Assembly (NCBI GenBank): GCA_964236515.1
Contig: CAXSDA010000014.1
Span: forward strand, 76,828-140,827
From: an uncultured Actinoplanes sp.
GTDB lineage: Bacteria; Actinomycetota; Actinomycetes; Mycobacteriales; Micromonosporaceae
DNA length: 64,000 nucleotides
Direction: 5' to 3'
Below, in pieces: positions 25,958 to 33,528 of this stretch (its first letter is position 1; each line of letters starts with the position of its first letter). A program made the position numbers and the translations under genes. The notes beneath the pieces are model-generated. The model ran no database searches. It worked only from the letters and a program-made list of their open reading frames with translations, and was not told where the DNA came from.

Positions 25958-26716
25958 TCAAATAACTCTTCGCGTTCTCCGTTCGTCGAGATGGCTCTCC
26001 ATGTCTGCAGCATCGCGCGTGCCATCCGAGACAGCCGGCGCCGCCGCTGGCCTGTCCGGGCCTGGCACCACCGCAGCCACCCGGACGAAGCCGCCGTGCA
26101 CCTGCCAGCGTCCGGTCACTTCGGTCAGCGGTGGGTGGCCGTCCCGCCGCGGGCCAGGCCGCAGCAGCCGCGCCGTGAATGAGCCCGATGCGGTGAACCG
26201 AAGCTCCGCCTCTTCAAATCCGAGTTGCCGTTGCCCGGTGAGCGGATACCAAGTTTTGAACACGGTCTCCTTGGCGCAGAACAGCAACCGGTCCCAGTGC
26301 AGGCCGGGCACCACCCGGTGCAGCCGGGCCAGATGGTCGCGCTCGGCCGGAAGTGATACCGCATCCAGGACACCGACGGGCAACGCAGCGTGCGGTTCGG
26401 CGTCGATGCCGATTGCGGCCACCGTGCCGTACAGGGCCACGGCCGCCGCCCGGTAGCCCGCGCAGTGCGTGATGCTGCCGACCACCCCGTCCGGCCAGAG
26501 CGGTTCCCGGTCGGGCCCGCTGGGGATCGCCACCGCCGGCACTCCGAGCGCCACCAGGGCCGCACGGGCGCAGCGACGGGCGGTCACAAACTCGCGGCGC
26601 CGCGACGTCACCGCCCGCGCGACGGCCGCCTCCTCGCCCGGGAACACCGGCTCGTCCGGGTCGTCGGAGTACGCCTCCGCGGTCGCCACCCCGTCCGGTG
26701 TCAGCTGCCCGATCAT
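25958..26716 (-). CDS. 4'-phosphopantetheinyl transferase, PptT/EntD-like
   Basis: RRREFVTARRCARAAL, WPDGVVGSITHC, IGIDAEP, LLFCAKETVFKTWYP; ATGA-coupled to the upstream gene. Confidence 0.94.
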   Translation of the reverse strand: MIGQLTPDGVATAEAYSDDPDEPVFPGEEAAVARAVTSRRREFVTARRCARAALVALGVPAVAIPSGPDREPLWPDGVVGSITHCAGYRAAAVALYGTVAAIGIDAEPHAALPVGVLDAVSLPAERDHLARLHRVVPGLHWDRLLFCAKETVFKTWYPLTGQRQLGFEEAELRFTASGSFTARLLRPGPRRDGHPPLTEVTGRWQVHGGFVRVAAVVPGPDRPAAAPAVSDGTRDAADMESHLDERRTRRVI

Positions 26717-27555
26717 CGCGCCGGCGCGGAGGGGTCGAGCACCGGCCGCAGCAACTCGGGCGGACCGCCCCGGCGCCGCCACTCGCGCGGGTAACCCAGC
26801 GATACCTCTCGGAACGGCACGCCGTCGTGGTGCGTGGTCCGCGGGATGTGCAGGTGCCCGTAGACGGCCGAAGCCGCCCGGAACCGCACGTGCCAGTTGG
26901 CGGTCCGCTCCGTGCCGCACCACTGGGCGAACTCCGGGTAGAACAGCACGTCGGTGGGCTCGCGGACGAGCGGCCAGTGCGAGACCAGGACTGTCGGCAG
27001 CTCCGGGTCGCAGGCCTCAAGCCGTCGTTCGGTCTCGACCACCCGGGCATGGCACCACGCGGCCCGGCTCGGATACGGATCCGGGTGCAGCAGCATCTCG
27101 TCGGTGCAGACCACACCCCGTTCGTACGCCTCGGCCAGCGACTGTTCCTCGGTGGTTCCGGGCGCCCGGAACGAGTAGTCGTACAACGTGAACAATGGCG
27201 AGACGACGATCGGCCCGCCGACGCCGTTCCAGACCGGAAAGTCGTCCTCCGGCGTCGACACGCCCAGCCGACGGCAGACCTCCACCAGTTCGCGGTACCG
27301 GGCCTCGCCGCGCAGCGTGACCGGGTCCTCCGGATGCGTCCAAAGCTCGTGATTGCCTGGCGCCCAAATCACTTTGGCGAACCGCTCGGCCAGCCGGGCG
27401 AGGGTGTCCCGCACGTCGGCGAACAACTCGGCCACGTCCCCCGCCACGATCAGCCAGTCCCCCTCGTCCAGCGGCTGCAGCGCGTCGACGATCGGGCGGT
27501 TCTCGGCGTGGGCGACGTGCAAGTCGCTGACCGCGTACAGGGAGCCGGTGTTCAC
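26713..27555 (-). CDS. Calcineurin-like metallophosphoesterase, PptH-like
   Basis: SDLHV, VAGDV, PGNHELW, VSHWP, YGHLH motifs; GGAGA RBS before GTG 27555. Confidence 0.92.
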   Translation of the reverse strand: MNTGSLYAVSDLHVAHAENRPIVDALQPLDEGDWLIVAGDVAELFADVRDTLARLAERFAKVIWAPGNHELWTHPEDPVTLRGEARYRELVEVCRRLGVSTPEDDFPVWNGVGGPIVVSPLFTLYDYSFRAPGTTEEQSLAEAYERGVVCTDEMLLHPDPYPSRAAWCHARVVETERRLEACDPELPTVLVSHWPLVREPTDVLFYPEFAQWCGTERTANWHVRFRAASAVYGHLHIPRTTHHDGVPFREVSLGYPREWRRRGGPPELLRPVLDPSAPAR

Positions 27556-27744
27556 TTCTCCACGGTGCCCGGGCAACCCCTTCAACGCTCGTCCGATGGG
27601 CCAAGTTAGGGGTTGAAGTAGGGGGAGCGGCCGCGACTACCGTCCAACAGTCCCAGGAGAGGTGGGCGTATGGAGCCGTTGTCCGAGGCGGCCCGGGGCC
27701 AGCGCCGATCCGGAGACGCTCGCTGCAGTTCCGGTTCCCACCCA

Positions 27745-28630
27745 CCACGTGGCCGTGTACCTGCGGGTGGAGGATGTCGGCATGTTCGTCGGCGTGGCCG
27801 ACAAGACGTCCGCAAATCATTGCGCGTGGGACAGGTGCCGATGCTGGAACTGGCGCCCGGCGAAGTCCTGGTCGCGGTGATGGCCAGCGCGATCAACTAC
27901 AACACCGTCTGGTCGGCGATGTGCGAGCCGCTCCCGACGTTCCACTTCGTCCAGCGCTTCGCGGCCGCCGGCGGCTGGGCCGGCCGTCGCGATCGGCCGC
28001 ACCAAGTGGTCGTTCCGATGGCGCCGGGGTGGTGGCCTGGAACGGTTCGGGCGTACGGCGGTGGGGGCCGGCGACCATGTGGTGATCAGCCCGGCGTACG
28101 TGGACGAACAGGAACCGCTCAGCCACGCCGACGGCATGCTGGGCGCCGACCAGCTTGCCTGGGGGCTGGCCCACTACACGGTCGTCCGCCGTGCGCCGGC
28201 ACCGCGTACCGATGATGGTCAGCGACAAGTGCGCCCGGATGAAGCTAGGGCGACGTGTTGCTCTACTGGGGTGCGGCGGGGCTCAGAGCGTACGCGATCC
28301 AGCTGGTCCGCAACGGTGGGCGTCGCGGTCGGGTCGGCGGCCGAGGCGGACACGGCCCCGGCACTCGGCTGCGACATGGTTATCCGCCGGGACGAGATCA
28401 AGCTCGACGACAGTTGCGCGGACGACGCCGCCCGCGTGGTCGAGGTCGGCACACGACTCGGCTCCCTGATCCGGCGCGACCGGGGAGGACCGCACATCGC
28501 CTTCTAGCACGTCGGGGGGTCCACTTTCGGCGTCCCGGTGTTCGTCGTGCGCCGCGGCGGCACCGTGGTCACCTTCGGCTCGAGCACCGGTTTGACCACC
28601 GCTTCGACAACCGCCACCTCTACTCCCGAA
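27745..28630 (+). pseudogene. ccr: Crotonyl-CoA carboxylase/reductase remnant
   Basis: Fragments across three frames: DVRKSL..ELAPGEVLVAVMASAINYNTVWSA..PTFHF; SDGAGVV; VISPAYVDEQEP.HADGMLG..QLAWG; CAGTAYR; QLVRNGG; VRRGGTVVTFGSSTG; FDNRHLY. Multiple frameshifts and stops. Confidence 0.88.
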
Positions 28631-28888
28631 TTCTCGATTATCACGATCGCAGCACAGCCGTCCTTCTCCGCGACGGCGCCGGCGCGGCCGGGGACGGTAC
28701 TGGGATCTTCGACGTTGCGCTGGCCTCCCGTGGCGACCTCCACACCCTGATCCGGGTGGAAGCGGGTGGCAGTCGCCGAACGGCCTCAGCCGCCACGCTT
28801 GCGTAGGAAGGCAGTCTCCCCGGTGATTTCGGCGAAAGTATCGACTGCGGTGACGCCGGGCCGCAGCACAAGCTCGATCACGCGGACG

Positions 28889-29092
28889 CTATTCCGCGAC
28901 GTAAGTACGGCCTGTCCAATAATAAATCGCGCCGTCACTGGACGGTTCGCGCTCGAAATGTTCGTAGCCGCCGTAGTGGCAGACTTTGACGCAGTCATCG
29001 GCGCTCGAAACGAGCGGGTGGCGCAGCTCCTCGGGGAGCAATGCCGGGCCGCCGCGCAGGTCAGCAGTTACGAGACGTTGGGTGTCAGTCAT
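28889..29092 (-). CDS. Small DUF5988-like protein
   Basis: LRGGPALLPEELR..VKVCHYGGYEHFER..YYWTGRTYVAE pattern; GGAGG RBS. Confidence 0.8.
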   Translation of the reverse strand: MTDTQRLVTADLRGGPALLPEELRHPLVSSADDCVKVCHYGGYEHFEREPSSDGAIYYWTGRTYVAE

Positions 29093-29221: not shown

Positions 29222-29590
29222 ACTGAGCTTATTATCCCGTTAGGACGACCTTCTTCTGCCGGGCGGCGAGTTTCGGCCGGTAGCGGTGGGGTTTGAACGG
29301 GATTCGGATGCTGCCGCGAGCGCCTTGGTAGGCCTTGTCGGCGAACATCGTCACCTTTCGCTGCTCAGGGCGCCGATGATGTGATGGGTGCGGTCCGCCG
29401 TCCGGTCAGTAGAGCTTCTGGTCGGCGACCCGGTCGATCGGGATCAGGGTGCCATCGAGGATCGCGTACCCGAGCAGCCTGATCCTGTTCGTCGCTGTGG
29501 CCAGGTCGTCAGCGGTCGTGGCGGGCAGGTCGTGGCCTCGCGGACGTATCGCCAGGCCGTCATGACACCGATCTGGAACCCGGCCGCCAG
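29222..29590 (-). mobile_element. Degraded IS5-family (DDE_Tnp_4, IS112-like) transposase remnant
   Basis: Minus-strand fragments RLAAGFQIGVMTAWRYVREA, YAILDGTLIPIDRVADQKLY(stop), MFADKAYQGARGSIRIPFK. Confidence 0.75.
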
Positions 29591-29830
29591 CCGCCCGAGC
29601 AACGCGGCTTCGAGGTTCACCGGAAACGATGGGTGGTCGAACGAACTCTGACCTGGCTGACCGCCCACCGCCGGCTGGCCCGCGACTACGAACGCGACCC
29701 GGAAGTGTCCGCAGAACTGATCCGTCGGGCCGCCATCAACCAGATGCCGCCCCGTGGCAAACCCGCTGCACGACAGCAACGCCGCACCCTGCAACAAGCC
29801 CGAGCTACAACTCTCTAAAACACCCACTGA
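29590..29830 (+). mobile_element. 3' end of a second IS5-family transposase
   Basis: QRGFEVHRKRWVVERTLTWLTAHRRLARDYERDP, followed by a degenerate terminal repeat-like CTCTAAAACACCCACT. Confidence 0.8.
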
Positions 29831-30213: not shown

Positions 30214-30978
30214 TCAGCCTTGCCGCGCGGTGAGCAGGCGAACCGAGTCGAGTTCGGTCGCGATCTCGCGCTGGACCGCGCCCAGGTGAGCGACGATGAA
30301 AAAGTGGCCCCCCGGGTAGACGGCGCTGCGGAAGTCGCCCTCGGTGTGCAGCCGCCACGCCTGGGACTCCGGCACCGTCGTGAGGGGATCGCTGTCGCCG
30401 GTCAGGGCGACGATCCGACTGCTGATCAGGCTGTCCCCGGTACCCAGGTAGGACTCGATTGCGCGGTAGTCGGCGCGGATCGACGGCATCGCCATCTTCA
30501 GCACATCGTCGTCCAGCCGGGCGACGTCGGTGCCGCCCAGGCGGTGGAGCTCGGCGATGACGCCTTCGTCGTCGCGGCGGTGCACCGTCTCGCGGCGCTG
30601 GGTGCTGGGAGCGCGCCGACCGGAGGCGATCAGCGAACGCGGGCCGGGGCGTCCGGCTCGCTGAAGCCGCAACGCCGTTTCGAAGGCGAGAATGGCGCCC
30701 ATACTGTGCCCGAAGTAGACGGTCGGCTTCTCCGGGTCGTACGAAATCTCCTCGGCCAGCCGGTCGGCCATAGTGGCGACGTCAGCGATGCAGGGCTCGT
30801 GACGCCGGTCCTGACGTCCCGGGTACTGCACCGAGATGACGTCGGCCTCGGCGCCGAACCGCACGGAAATCGGGTGGTAGTAGCTCGCCGAGCCGCCGGC
30901 GTGCGGGAAGCACACCAGCCGGACGCTGCTCTGCGGGTTCGGATGGAATCGCATCAGCCAGCGGGAGTTGCTGTTCAC
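30214..30978 (-). CDS. Type II (editing) thioesterase
   Basis: LVCFPHAGGSAS, QYPGRQDR, GHSMG nucleophile, GGHFF; GTGA overlap with the aminotransferase stop. Confidence 0.95.
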   Translation of the reverse strand: MNSNSRWLMRFHPNPQSSVRLVCFPHAGGSASYYHPISVRFGAEADVISVQYPGRQDRRHEPCIADVATMADRLAEEISYDPEKPTVYFGHSMGAILAFETALRLQRAGRPGPRSLIASGRRAPSTQRRETVHRRDDEGVIAELHRLGGTDVARLDDDVLKMAMPSIRADYRAIESYLGTGDSLISSRIVALTGDSDPLTTVPESQAWRLHTEGDFRSAVYPGGHFFIVAHLGAVQREIATELDSVRLLTARQG

Positions 30979-32063
30979 GGTGTGATCCTCTCGACGGTGG
31001 GGCGGGATGGCCCGTGGTAGAACTGGCGGATCTGGGAGATGACGAATTCCTGATCGGCCGCTGTCATCGAGGTGTAGGTCGGCAGGTAGAAGCCGTCCCG
31101 GCTGAGCCGGCTGGCGTTGAGCGCCGGCCAATCGGGGTGCAGATAGCCGGGCTGGCGGCTCATCGGCTTGAAGAAGACCCGGGTCTCCACCCCCGCCGCG
31201 CGCAGAAACTCCCGCAGCGCTTCGCTGTCGCGGGCACAGATGTCGTACATCCAGAGCACGTCGCGCGGTGGCATCAGGGTGAGTTCGGGGATGTCCTGCA
31301 GACCGGCGTCGTAGCGTTTCTCGATCAAACTGCGGGCGGCGAGGATCTCGTCGAGGCGCTCCACCTGGGCGAGGGCCACCGCCGCCTGCATCGCCGTCAT
31401 CCGGAAGTTGTAGGCCAACTTCCTGTGCAGGAAGCTGTGGTCGGAGGTGAAGGCCATCCCGCGCAGATGCTCGAGCTGGCCGGCCAGCCGGGGGTCGGCC
31501 GTCAGGCACACGCCACCCTCGCCGGAGGTGATGATCTTGTTAGCGAACAGCGAGTAGCAGGCGATGTCGCCCACCGGCCGGACGCCGTGCGCCTCGGCCG
31601 AATCCTCGACCACCCGCAGGTTGTAGTCGTAGGCAAGGCCCATGATCGTGTCCATGTCACACCGCCGGCCGTACACGTGTACCGGCATGATGGCCCTGGT
31701 GCGGCTGGTGATCTTCTCCTCGATGCGGGTGACGTCGATGTTGAGATCGTCGGCGCAGTCGACGAAAACGGGTGTCGCGCCGACGTAGGTGACCGCCCAG
31801 GCCGAGGCGATCATCGTGAACTCGGGGACGATCACCTCGTCGCCCGGGCCGATGCGGAGGGCCCGCAAGGCGAGCGTCAGAGCGGCTGTTCCAGAGGAGC
31901 ACGCGATCGCGTGGGCGTAACCGTTGTAGGTGGCGAAGGCCTGCTCGAAGCGCTGAACGTAAGGCCCTTGCGACGAGATCCAGCCGGCGGTCACGGTGTC
32001 GGTGACGTACTCCAGCTCGCGTCCGTCGAGACAGGGTTTGGATACCGGGTACCGGAAGGTCAT
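30975..32063 (-). CDS. DegT/DnrJ aminotransferase, polyene mycosamine/perosamine synthase type (NysDII/AmphDII-like)
   Basis: YPVSKP..WISSQGPYV, SSGTAAL, EDSAEAHG, SLFANKIITSGEGG (PLP Lys), HSFLHRKLAYNFRM, DVLWMYD, FFKPMSRQP. Confidence 0.93.
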   Translation of the reverse strand: MTFRYPVSKPCLDGRELEYVTDTVTAGWISSQGPYVQRFEQAFATYNGYAHAIACSSGTAALTLALRALRIGPGDEVIVPEFTMIASAWAVTYVGATPVFVDCADDLNIDVTRIEEKITSRTRAIMPVHVYGRRCDMDTIMGLAYDYNLRVVEDSAEAHGVRPVGDIACYSLFANKIITSGEGGVCLTADPRLAGQLEHLRGMAFTSDHSFLHRKLAYNFRMTAMQAAVALAQVERLDEILAARSLIEKRYDAGLQDIPELTLMPPRDVLWMYDICARDSEALREFLRAAGVETRVFFKPMSRQPGYLHPDWPALNASRLSRDGFYLPTYTSMTAADQEFVISQIRQFYHGPSRPTVERITP

Positions 32064-32100
32064 GACCGTCCTCGCAAGGGTCCGCTGGTGGGCTGAGTGC

Positions 32101-33528
32101 TCAGAGCGCGATATTGCCGTGCGCGCCACGCCGCTGGGGCGCTGCCGCGATCGCCTCGGCCAGGTGCCGGCTCGTGCGGGCAGGCTCGATGACCTCGTCC
32201 ACCACCCCGATCTCCAGGGCTTTCGAAACGCCGCCGGCGAGGCGTTCGTGCTCGGCGACCAAGGTGGTGCGGAGCGCTTCGCGCTGGTGGTCCGGCGCCT
32301 CGGCGAGCTTGCGGCGATGCAGGATCTCGATGGCCGCGCCGGCGCCCATGACGGCGACCTCGGCTTCCGGCCAGGCGAAGACGGCCGTCGCCCCGAGCGC
32401 CTTGCAGTTCATGGCGATGTAGGCGCCCCCGTACGCCTTGCGGGTAATCAGCGTGACCGACGGCACGGCCGCCTCGGCGAAGGCGTGCAGCAGCTTCGCT
32501 CCGCGGCGGACCACGCCGTCCCACTCCTGCTGCACCCCGGGCAGATAGCCTGGAACGTCGACCAGGACGACCAGTGGTACCCCGAAGGCGTCGCACATGC
32601 GCACGAACCGGGCCGCCTTCTCCGCCGAGAGCGAGTCGAGGCAGCCGCCTTTGCGCAGCGGGTTGTTGGCCACCACGCCGACGCTGCGTCCGGCCAGGCG
32701 CCCAAACCCAATCACCATGTTGGGCGCCCACTTGGCCTGCAGCTCGACGAAACCGGCGCCGCCGGGGTCGTCGTCGAGCAGCTGATGGACCAGCGGGCGC
32801 ACGTCGTAGGCCCGTTTGGCCGATTCCGGCAACAACGCCCGCGGGTCCCCTGTCCGGGCCCGGGCCGGATCGACGTGGCCGGGGTCGGCCAGCAGCTCGA
32901 CGAGTCGCCGGGTGCGCTGGTACGCGTCGGTCTCGGAGGTGGCGATCACGTGGGCGACGCCCGAGCGGCGGCCGTGGGCGTCGGGGCCGCCCAACGCCTC
33001 CATGTCGATCTGCTCGCCGGTGACCGAGCGGACCACGTCCGGGCCCGTGATGAAGACGCGGGCCTGCTCGGCCATGATGACGATGTCGGTGAGCGCCGGT
33101 CCATAGGCCGCGCCACCGGCCGCCGGCCCGACGACCACGGACAGCTGCGGGATGCGCCCCGAGGCGCGCACCATCGCCGCGAACATCTGCCCGATGCCGT
33201 CCATGGAGGCAACGCCTTCGGCCAGTTTGGCCCCGCCGGAGTGCCAGATGCCGACGACCGGGATGCCTTCGAGCAGAGCCCGATCGATCCCCTGGGCGAT
33301 GACCGGGCAGTCGTCGGCGCCGATCGCGCCACCCATCGAGCGCCCGTCGGTGCAGTAGACGATGACCGGGCATTCGGCGATCCGGCCGCGGGCGACGACG
33401 ACGTTTGTGCGCCGCGCGATGGTCTCGAGCGACTCCGCGTCGAGGAGTTGCCCGATGCGGTAGTACGGTTCTCGCTGGTCCAGACGCGACTCGGCCGAAC
33501 CTTGCTCAGTCACTACGGGGAGCGCCAT
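32101..33528 (-). CDS. Acyl-CoA carboxylase carboxyltransferase subunit, AccD6-like
   Basis: YCTDG..MGGA, WHSGGAKLAEG, GPAAGGAAYGPALTD, FITGPDVV, DVPGYLPG, TRKAYGGAY, GVVDEVI. Confidence 0.93.
   Translation of the reverse strand: MALPVVTEQGSAESRLDQREPYYRIGQLLDAESLETIARRTNVVVARGRIAECPVIVYCTDGRSMGGAIGADDCPVIAQGIDRALLEGIPVVGIWHSGGAKLAEGVASMDGIGQMFAAMVRASGRIPQLSVVVGPAAGGAAYGPALTDIVIMAEQARVFITGPDVVRSVTGEQIDMEALGGPDAHGRRSGVAHVIATSETDAYQRTRRLVELLADPGHVDPARARTGDPRALLPESAKRAYDVRPLVHQLLDDDPGGAGFVELQAKWAPNMVIGFGRLAGRSVGVVANNPLRKGGCLDSLSAEKAARFVRMCDAFGVPLVVLVDVPGYLPGVQQEWDGVVRRGAKLLHAFAEAAVPSVTLITRKAYGGAYIAMNCKALGATAVFAWPEAEVAVMGAGAAIEILHRRKLAEAPDHQREALRTTLVAEHERLAGGVSKALEIGVVDEVIEPARTSRHLAEAIAAAPQRRGAHGNIAL

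Follow-up and report, generated by a model that had tools for sequence, protein, structure and literature searches.

Positions 27670-28806 of the window, the 64,000-nucleotide stretch of DNA analysed here (G000:C14:76828-140827, from an Actinoplanes genome that is 96% complete), are a dead two-gene cassette for the supply of alkylmalonyl-CoA. A pseudogene of a crotonyl-CoA carboxylase/reductase (CCR) is followed by an internal fragment of a FabH-like KSIII gene, and the surrounding genes are a nystatin/amphotericin-like glycosylated polyene cluster, at whose edge the relic lies. We consider it reasonably probable that the CCR–KSIII cassette was inactivated by deletions and persists as a passenger or leftover that most likely did not serve the present polyene PKS.

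Structure of the CCR–KSIII relic

The CCR pseudogene occupies 27670-28617 on the + strand and derives from a CinF-type enoyl-CoA carboxylase/reductase. It was recognised by frameshift-aware alignment and by fragmentary TIGR01751 matches, and its best match in the PDB is CinF (4a0s). When the translation was read frame by frame, CCR homology was spread over three + strand frames between 27670 and 28632. A preliminary description of this DNA had reported a heavily frameshifted CCR carrying TFHF, VDEQEPLSHADGMLG, CAGTAYR and QLVRNGG, and all of these motifs are present, distributed over the three frames. The position it gave, 27745-28630, located the CCR correctly but fell short of its 5' end, the original ATG being kept at 27670, and the KSIII fragment at 28618-28800 was missed.

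Plain tblastn searches with intact CCRs crossed the frameshifts and produced misleading long, low-identity alignments, and a frameshift-aware dynamic programme was used instead. Under this programme, the relic aligned with residues 1-354 of ~448 in three intact CCRs of the same genus at 59-61% identity (316-320 aligned residues, 8 frame changes); its identity to primary-type Ccr was 46%. Hand resolution of the confused middle brought the count to nine frame changes, dividing the relic into ten in-frame pieces: 27670-27696, 27698-27802, 27805-28011, 28014-28064, 28067-28189, 28192-28212, 28212-28250, 28249-28317, 28319-28591 and 28594-28632.

The frame changes are accompanied by further lesions. 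An in-frame TAG occupies 28505-28507, the codon for Glu or Asp in intact CCRs (IVFEH / IAFDY), and the gene is truncated at its 3' end at about codon 351 of ~448, with the last ~94 codons (~21% of the gene) gone. Alignment revealed two internal deletions: seven codons (GFETNFG) and, ahead of CAGTAYR, ~20 codons. The NADPH motif WGA(A/S/T)GGLG reads WGAAGLRA in the relic, one Gly codon having been lost and one Gly changed to Arg. The CO2-binding tetrad of CCRs consists of Asn81, Phe170, Glu171 and His365 in K. setae numbering (PMC6628652); of these, the relic retains only the Asn (in NYN), the Phe-Glu pair lying within the deleted GFETNFG and the His within the missing 3' end. Across 101 intact CCRs, 117 alignment columns reach a conservation of 97% or more, and the relic matches 63 of them. 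In place of a single ORF of ~440-450 codons, TIGR01751, a family with the MDR fold, detected three fragments in different frames (67, 51 and 23 bits), which leaves the family cut-off of 378.55 bits unreached. The CCR relic has decayed beyond function. The third-position GC content (GC3) of its reconstructed frames is still 0.86, compared with 0.88-0.90 in most intact neighbour genes; the adjacent, mostly non-coding DNA has an overall GC content of 0.635.

At ~28618, the truncated CCR is joined in frame to the KSIII fragment, which runs from 28618 to 28806 on the + strand: 61 codons at 28618-28800, and a TAG stop at 28804-28806. The fragment was identified by a Pfam ACP_syn_III match (positions 37-59) and by alignment, in which it covers residues 184-248 of the Actinoplanes palleronii cassette KSIII, numbered on a stop-to-stop frame of 371 codons (frameshift-aware alignment score 138, zero frameshifts). 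The N-terminal ~140 and the C-terminal ~120 codons are gone. FabH enzymes carry a catalytic Cys in the N-terminal region and a catalytic His/Asn pair in the C-terminal region; both catalytic regions are missing here, leaving an incomplete FabH-like KSIII thiolase fold. An intact KSIII paralogue with no adjoining CCR, sharing 60% identity with the KSIII of the A. palleronii cassette, is located at G000:C2:148915-149898 (-).

In A. palleronii (G031), the KSIII gene lies directly 3' of the CCR, and the same arrangement recurs widely. At 80 named loci encoding CinF-like CCRs, KSIII immediately follows the CCR on the same strand in 47, is placed divergently upstream in 1 and lies at another point of the flank in 3; PKS genes occur in the flanks of 48. 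Two of these flanks, in Streptomyces sp. DvalAA-14 (L043) and Sphaerisporangium flaviroseum (L056), each contain two CinF-like CCR copies. Because KSIII directly follows the CCR in 47 of the 80 intact relatives, the remnant indicates that a whole CCR–KSIII cassette decayed here. The KSIII fusion is a newly recognised part of the remnant, making it a cassette rather than a lone gene.

Affiliation with the CinF-like CCRs

Judged by its sequence, the relic belongs to the CinF-like clade of secondary metabolism, and is neither a housekeeping Ccr nor an AntE-like enzyme. One of its pieces matches CinF (4a0s) with 87 bits, K. setae Ccr with 59 and AntE with 33; a second piece matches CinF only (45 bits). 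In trees built on 103 and 47 sequences, the quick tree under a mixture model, a long branch with support of 96-100 parts the primary-like from the CinF-like clade, and the relic falls inside the latter. The primary-like clade consists of Ccrs from other families of the order together with a second Actinoplanes lineage. At 23 clade-diagnostic columns, the relic is CinF-like in 20, primary-like in 0 and neither in 3. Once the frame had been rebuilt and the CCR tree run, the split (support 100) and the diagnostic columns bore out the preliminary description in placing the enzyme in secondary rather than primary metabolism.

In the tree, the relic lies nearest to the intact CCR of Actinomadura macra, with which it shares 69% identity over 314 columns, and to two from Kitasatospora, so that none of these neighbours is from Actinoplanes; the exact position of the relic, on a long branch, has weak support (71-88). 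The A. macra CCR scores 729 bits against CinF, 489 against primary Ccrs and 225 against AntE. The resemblance to AntE-type CCRs suggested in the preliminary description consequently gives way to a CinF-like assignment, both for the relic itself (87 vs 33 bits) and for its nearest intact relative (729 vs 225).

The position of CinF Ala163, to which the CinF structure paper is said to assign a role, is occupied by Ala in the relic (LAWG) and by Ile in primary Ccrs (RIWG). The position of CinF Gly362 is deleted together with the GSH-x-AN segment, including its His; with this equivalent gone, the former substrate and chain-length preference of the relic is unreadable. A DNA search of 61 relatives, followed by one of 131 genomes of the genus, found no orthologous locus with an intact gene, and the best DNA matches to the relic in those genomes were 72-74% identical and lay in unrelated contexts. 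G043, an unpublished genome among the matches, is used for no statement here. When the best-conserved piece was searched against 5.8 billion proteins, nothing exceeded 80% identity.

The polyene cluster, its acyltransferases and its relatives

The relic is flanked on the left by pptT and pptH (25958-27585, -). The next gene on the right is an intact DUF5988 gene encoding 67 aa (28889-29092, -), and ~450 bp downstream of the relic lies debris of an IS5-family transposase in two orientations (29254-29830). Copies on contigs C32, C67, C45 and C49 share 80-86% identity with the IS5 fragments, and matches of lower identity or shorter length occur on C77 and C4; what looks like a complete transposase frame is located at C32:77845-78717. 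To the right of the debris follow, in order, TEII, a DegT-type aminotransferase (AmT), an AccD6-like carboxyltransferase, a PAS-LuxR regulator, a LAL regulator, two ABC transporters, a GDP-mannose dehydratase (GMD), a glyoxalase-fold protein and the PKS. The relic therefore sits between pptH-pptT and TEII-AmT, inside a gene set common to related clusters.

DUF5988 was considered as a further member of the cassette and set aside, since it occurs near a CCR in only three loci. In L132 (G015:C92 ~37.2-39.8 kb), it lies directly upstream of the CCR–KSIII pair in the same orientation, and it is also found near the CCRs of L082 and L085, a weak but recurrent link.

The carboxyltransferase at 32101-33528 (-) was classified by its bit scores against AccD6 and MccB: it matches M. 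tuberculosis AccD6 end to end with 633 bits, and MccB (5inf/5ing) with 347 bits. It is the only AccD6-type gene of the genome, the next best match being 44% identical, and it seems to form an operon with the aminotransferase and TEII. In almost all Actinoplanes genomes, a single AccD6-like copy of 70-74% DNA identity is located elsewhere. By this similarity, the enzyme is predicted to supply malonyl-CoA, and a housekeeping gene for malonyl-CoA supply likely sits inside the cluster here. A CCR-independent, MccB-type route to alkylmalonyl-CoA was rejected for this gene on the same scores, and with it the idea that the branch unit is now supplied otherwise, as the preliminary description had offered, finds no footing in the neighbouring carboxyltransferase (633 bits for AccD6, 347 for MccB).

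The PKS is split over contigs C14, C17 and several small contigs. On C14, it comprises a KSQ loading module, eight extension modules and a TE, and includes an uninterrupted ORF of 7566 codons (22.7 kb); the end of C14 (165.4-167.7 kb) cuts a further PKS gene (KR-ACP-docking). Ten-N scaffold gaps fall inside PKS genes at C14 151679-151689 and 155638-155648, and the third PKS ORF seems to have no KR and ACP because of the gap at 151679. Contig C17 (1-44 kb) contributes eight more acyltransferases (ATs), 7 with HAFH and 1 with YASH, and carries homologues of the P450 and of the 473-aa ORF, a presumed glycosyltransferase, that flank AmT in the sister cluster G072.

Four extender ATs are visible in the window, with GHSxGE at ~47966, 52826, 57860 and 62900 (-), and each carries HAFH, in agreement with the preliminary description, which had called all four malonyl-type. 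A six-frame profile scan of the genome detected 21 modular extender ATs, 17 malonyl-type (HAFH) and 4 methylmalonyl-type (YASH), the latter all outside the window, besides 1 degenerate loading AT and 1 FabD. The same scan found no AT with a non-canonical specificity motif, as far as motif prediction reaches; examined likewise, the loci L049 and G012 do have an atypical AT near the CCR (APGH and FASH, respectively). On the AT evidence, the product would be built from malonyl and methylmalonyl units only. Nor is there an intact CCR above the family cut-off in this 96%-complete genome, in which the relic is the sole CCR-like tblastn match. Because the genome has neither an intact CCR nor an AT with a non-canonical motif, the relic has no present function.

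The loading module, on the first PKS protein, is KSQ-AT-ACP and lies just outside the window, at C14 ~141.9-142.5 kb (window-equivalent ~65.1-65.7 kb). Its AT is degenerate, with GQAEGE for GHSxGE, 139 of 300 profile positions and no HAFH region. The loading AT of sister cluster G010 (L127, G010:C368 ~8.3-8.9 kb) is similarly dead and internally deleted (AGNRLGE). In five further sister clusters, the loading AT is complete (GHSIGG/GHSIGA and HAFH).

Six Actinoplanes loci (G072, G026, G065, G022, G076 and G010) share AmT and TEII with the cluster, together with ABC/LAL genes in some and a related loading module in others; G072 additionally shares GMD and pptH-pptT. No CCR or KSIII was found in the 20-60 kb fetched around each of the six. 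A whole-genome CCR search of five sister genomes found none at all in G065 and G010; the CCRs of G072 and G026 are on other contigs, and that of G076 is ~475 kb away. The CCR matches of G022 are on contigs other than the cluster contig. AmT and TEII abut in the window (30214-32129) and in G010. A gap of ~1.5 kb separates them in five sister clusters; in G072 (L116-L118), it is filled by a P450 and a ferredoxin gene.

Two further loci were examined as possible sisters. G012 was rejected as a sister with an intact CCR because its CCR, 42% identical to the relic, falls in the other clade, and as a polyene sister, given that 80 kb gave no GMD, PAS-LuxR, LAL or ABC matches. In that locus (L129, C33 ~432.8-436.9 kb), a primary-like-clade CCR lies between a DegT aminotransferase, 68% identical to that of the window, and TEII, beside a PKS with a FASH-type AT; pptH-pptT is 6 kb off. 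L049 (Actinomadura rugatobispora), with the order CCR-TEII-GMD, was likewise excluded, as its cluster is of another, macrolide-type kind that includes P450s and a methyltransferase.

Origin of the cassette and comparison with known systems

When intact, the cassette would have made an extender unit in two stages: its FabH-like KSIII would help make a medium-chain 2-enoyl thioester, which the CinF-type enzyme would reductively carboxylate to an alkylmalonyl-CoA for a modular PKS. A single deletion of ~0.7-0.8 kb took away the CCR 3' end together with the KSIII 5' end, fusing CCR codon ~351 to KSIII codon ~184, and a second deletion took the KSIII 3' end. Afterwards, the CCR part gained its nine frame changes, the stop codon and several in-frame deletions, including that of the CO2-pocket Phe-Glu motif. 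On this account, the cassette would be a passenger, or else a vestige from a different state of the cluster, at a rearranged, IS-littered cluster edge, and would have decayed because no module used its product.

The cassette probably never served the present nystatin-like PKS, or ceased to do so long ago. That it was probably not meant for this PKS follows from the canonical AT motifs, the sister clusters devoid of CCR and KSIII in the flanks fetched, nearest relatives outside Actinoplanes (a weakly supported placement) and the IS debris. Several observations weigh against a passenger: the relic lies inside the shared gene set; CCRs do occur in polyene clusters, as rimJ illustrates; and the CCR of G012 lies between AmT and TEII. 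Moreover, AT motifs predict specificity imperfectly, the PKS is split so that a module is possibly unassembled, and the sister clusters were read over 20-60 kb. These points leave room for another history, in which a module of this polyene PKS formerly drew on the cassette and the ancestral macrolide bore an ethyl or longer alkyl branch that was lost through AT replacement or drift, after which the cassette decayed. The position of the relic between pptH-pptT and TEII-AmT and its PKS-associated, CinF-like type are consistent with such a history, as is the GC3 of 0.86, which points to fairly recent coding selection; among the four ATs with YASH, all located outside the window, one could descend from an AT for a bulkier unit and could once have taken one itself. 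A precedent is rimJ, which lies in a glycosylated polyene cluster and whose loss is tolerated (PMC4540446). The preliminary description had likewise proposed an ancestral alkyl branch, and the evidence does not support it: the 17 HAFH- and 4 YASH-type ATs include none that is atypical, the fetched flanks of the six related Actinoplanes clusters hold neither CCR nor KSIII, no Actinoplanes CCR is closest to the relic, and IS debris adjoins it. Nystatin-type macrolides, moreover, are not known to need an alkylmalonyl unit. We therefore regard this history as rather unlikely, though not remote; its more specific form, in which an ancestral polyene carried a medium-chain alkyl branch (cf. filipin and rimocidin) and the AT was replaced or retuned while the cassette decayed in place, strikes us as doubtful.

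The remaining explanations fare far worse. The cassette might have supplied a unit for something other than extension, such as an unusual starter, and become dispensable once the loading module changed; the degenerate loading AT here and in G010, set beside five sisters with full-length ones, would fit. CCR products are malonyl-type extender units, a KSQ-type loading KS decarboxylates a malonyl-type unit, and G010 has the same degenerate loading AT but no CCR, all of which makes a starter role very improbable. An intact gene disrupted only by sequencing or assembly errors is conceivable, since the assembly is a draft in 111 contigs and C14 contains 10-N gaps, but nine frame changes, a stop, deletions of 7 and ~20 codons and the KSIII fusion all fall within 1.1 kb, whereas the 22.7-kb PKS ORF and all neighbour genes on C14 are uninterrupted, and we give error almost no credence. 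Descent from a housekeeping Ccr of the ethylmalonyl-CoA pathway has nothing beyond family membership to commend it, against a strongly supported clade split and diagnostic columns that are primary-like in 0 of 23 and CinF-like in 20; the relic is also joined to a KSIII rather than placed beside ethylmalonyl-CoA pathway genes, and most Actinoplanes genomes searched give only weak or chance matches. Its probability is close to nil.

Both the enzyme family and the cassette are well known, and the relic, an ordinary pseudogene within them, carries little weight alone. It matters for product prediction, since annotation software might take the CCR fragment as a sign of an unusual extender unit and arrive at a wrong product. 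It also bears on cassette gain and loss, presenting the CCR–KSIII pair as moving and decaying as a single unit at cluster edges. If closer relatives with an intact copy exist, the locus could serve to time a shift in polyene structure; and if the loss of an alkyl branch is true, it would be a real structural simplification and a natural example of de-branching in a polyene macrolide.

Among solved structures, CinF (PDB 4a0s), the 2-octenoyl-CoA carboxylase/reductase of the cinnabaramide cluster, is the best match for every matching piece of the relic; unlike CinF, the relic is a pseudogene devoid of the Phe166/Glu167 motif and the GSH-x-AN segment. AntE (PDB 4y0k) belongs to the same superfamily and is a distant match. 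The reveromycin cluster contains an experimentally implicated pair for alkylmalonyl-CoA supply, the FabH homologue revR and the CCR revT (PMC5187497). The relic cassette combines the same two enzyme types, and no revS-like medium-chain acyl-CoA ligase was seen beside it; an adjacent CCR–KSIII pair beside PKS genes is found in its intact relatives. In the cluster for rimocidin/CE-108, a glycosylated polyene of the mycosamine type, the CCR gene rimJ lies inside the cluster, and its disruption led to the use of an alternative extender unit without abolishing production (PMC4540446). The rimJ gene is undamaged there and serves a cognate module (step 13), whereas the relic, which resembles it in cluster setting, is dead and accompanied by no AT with an atypical motif.
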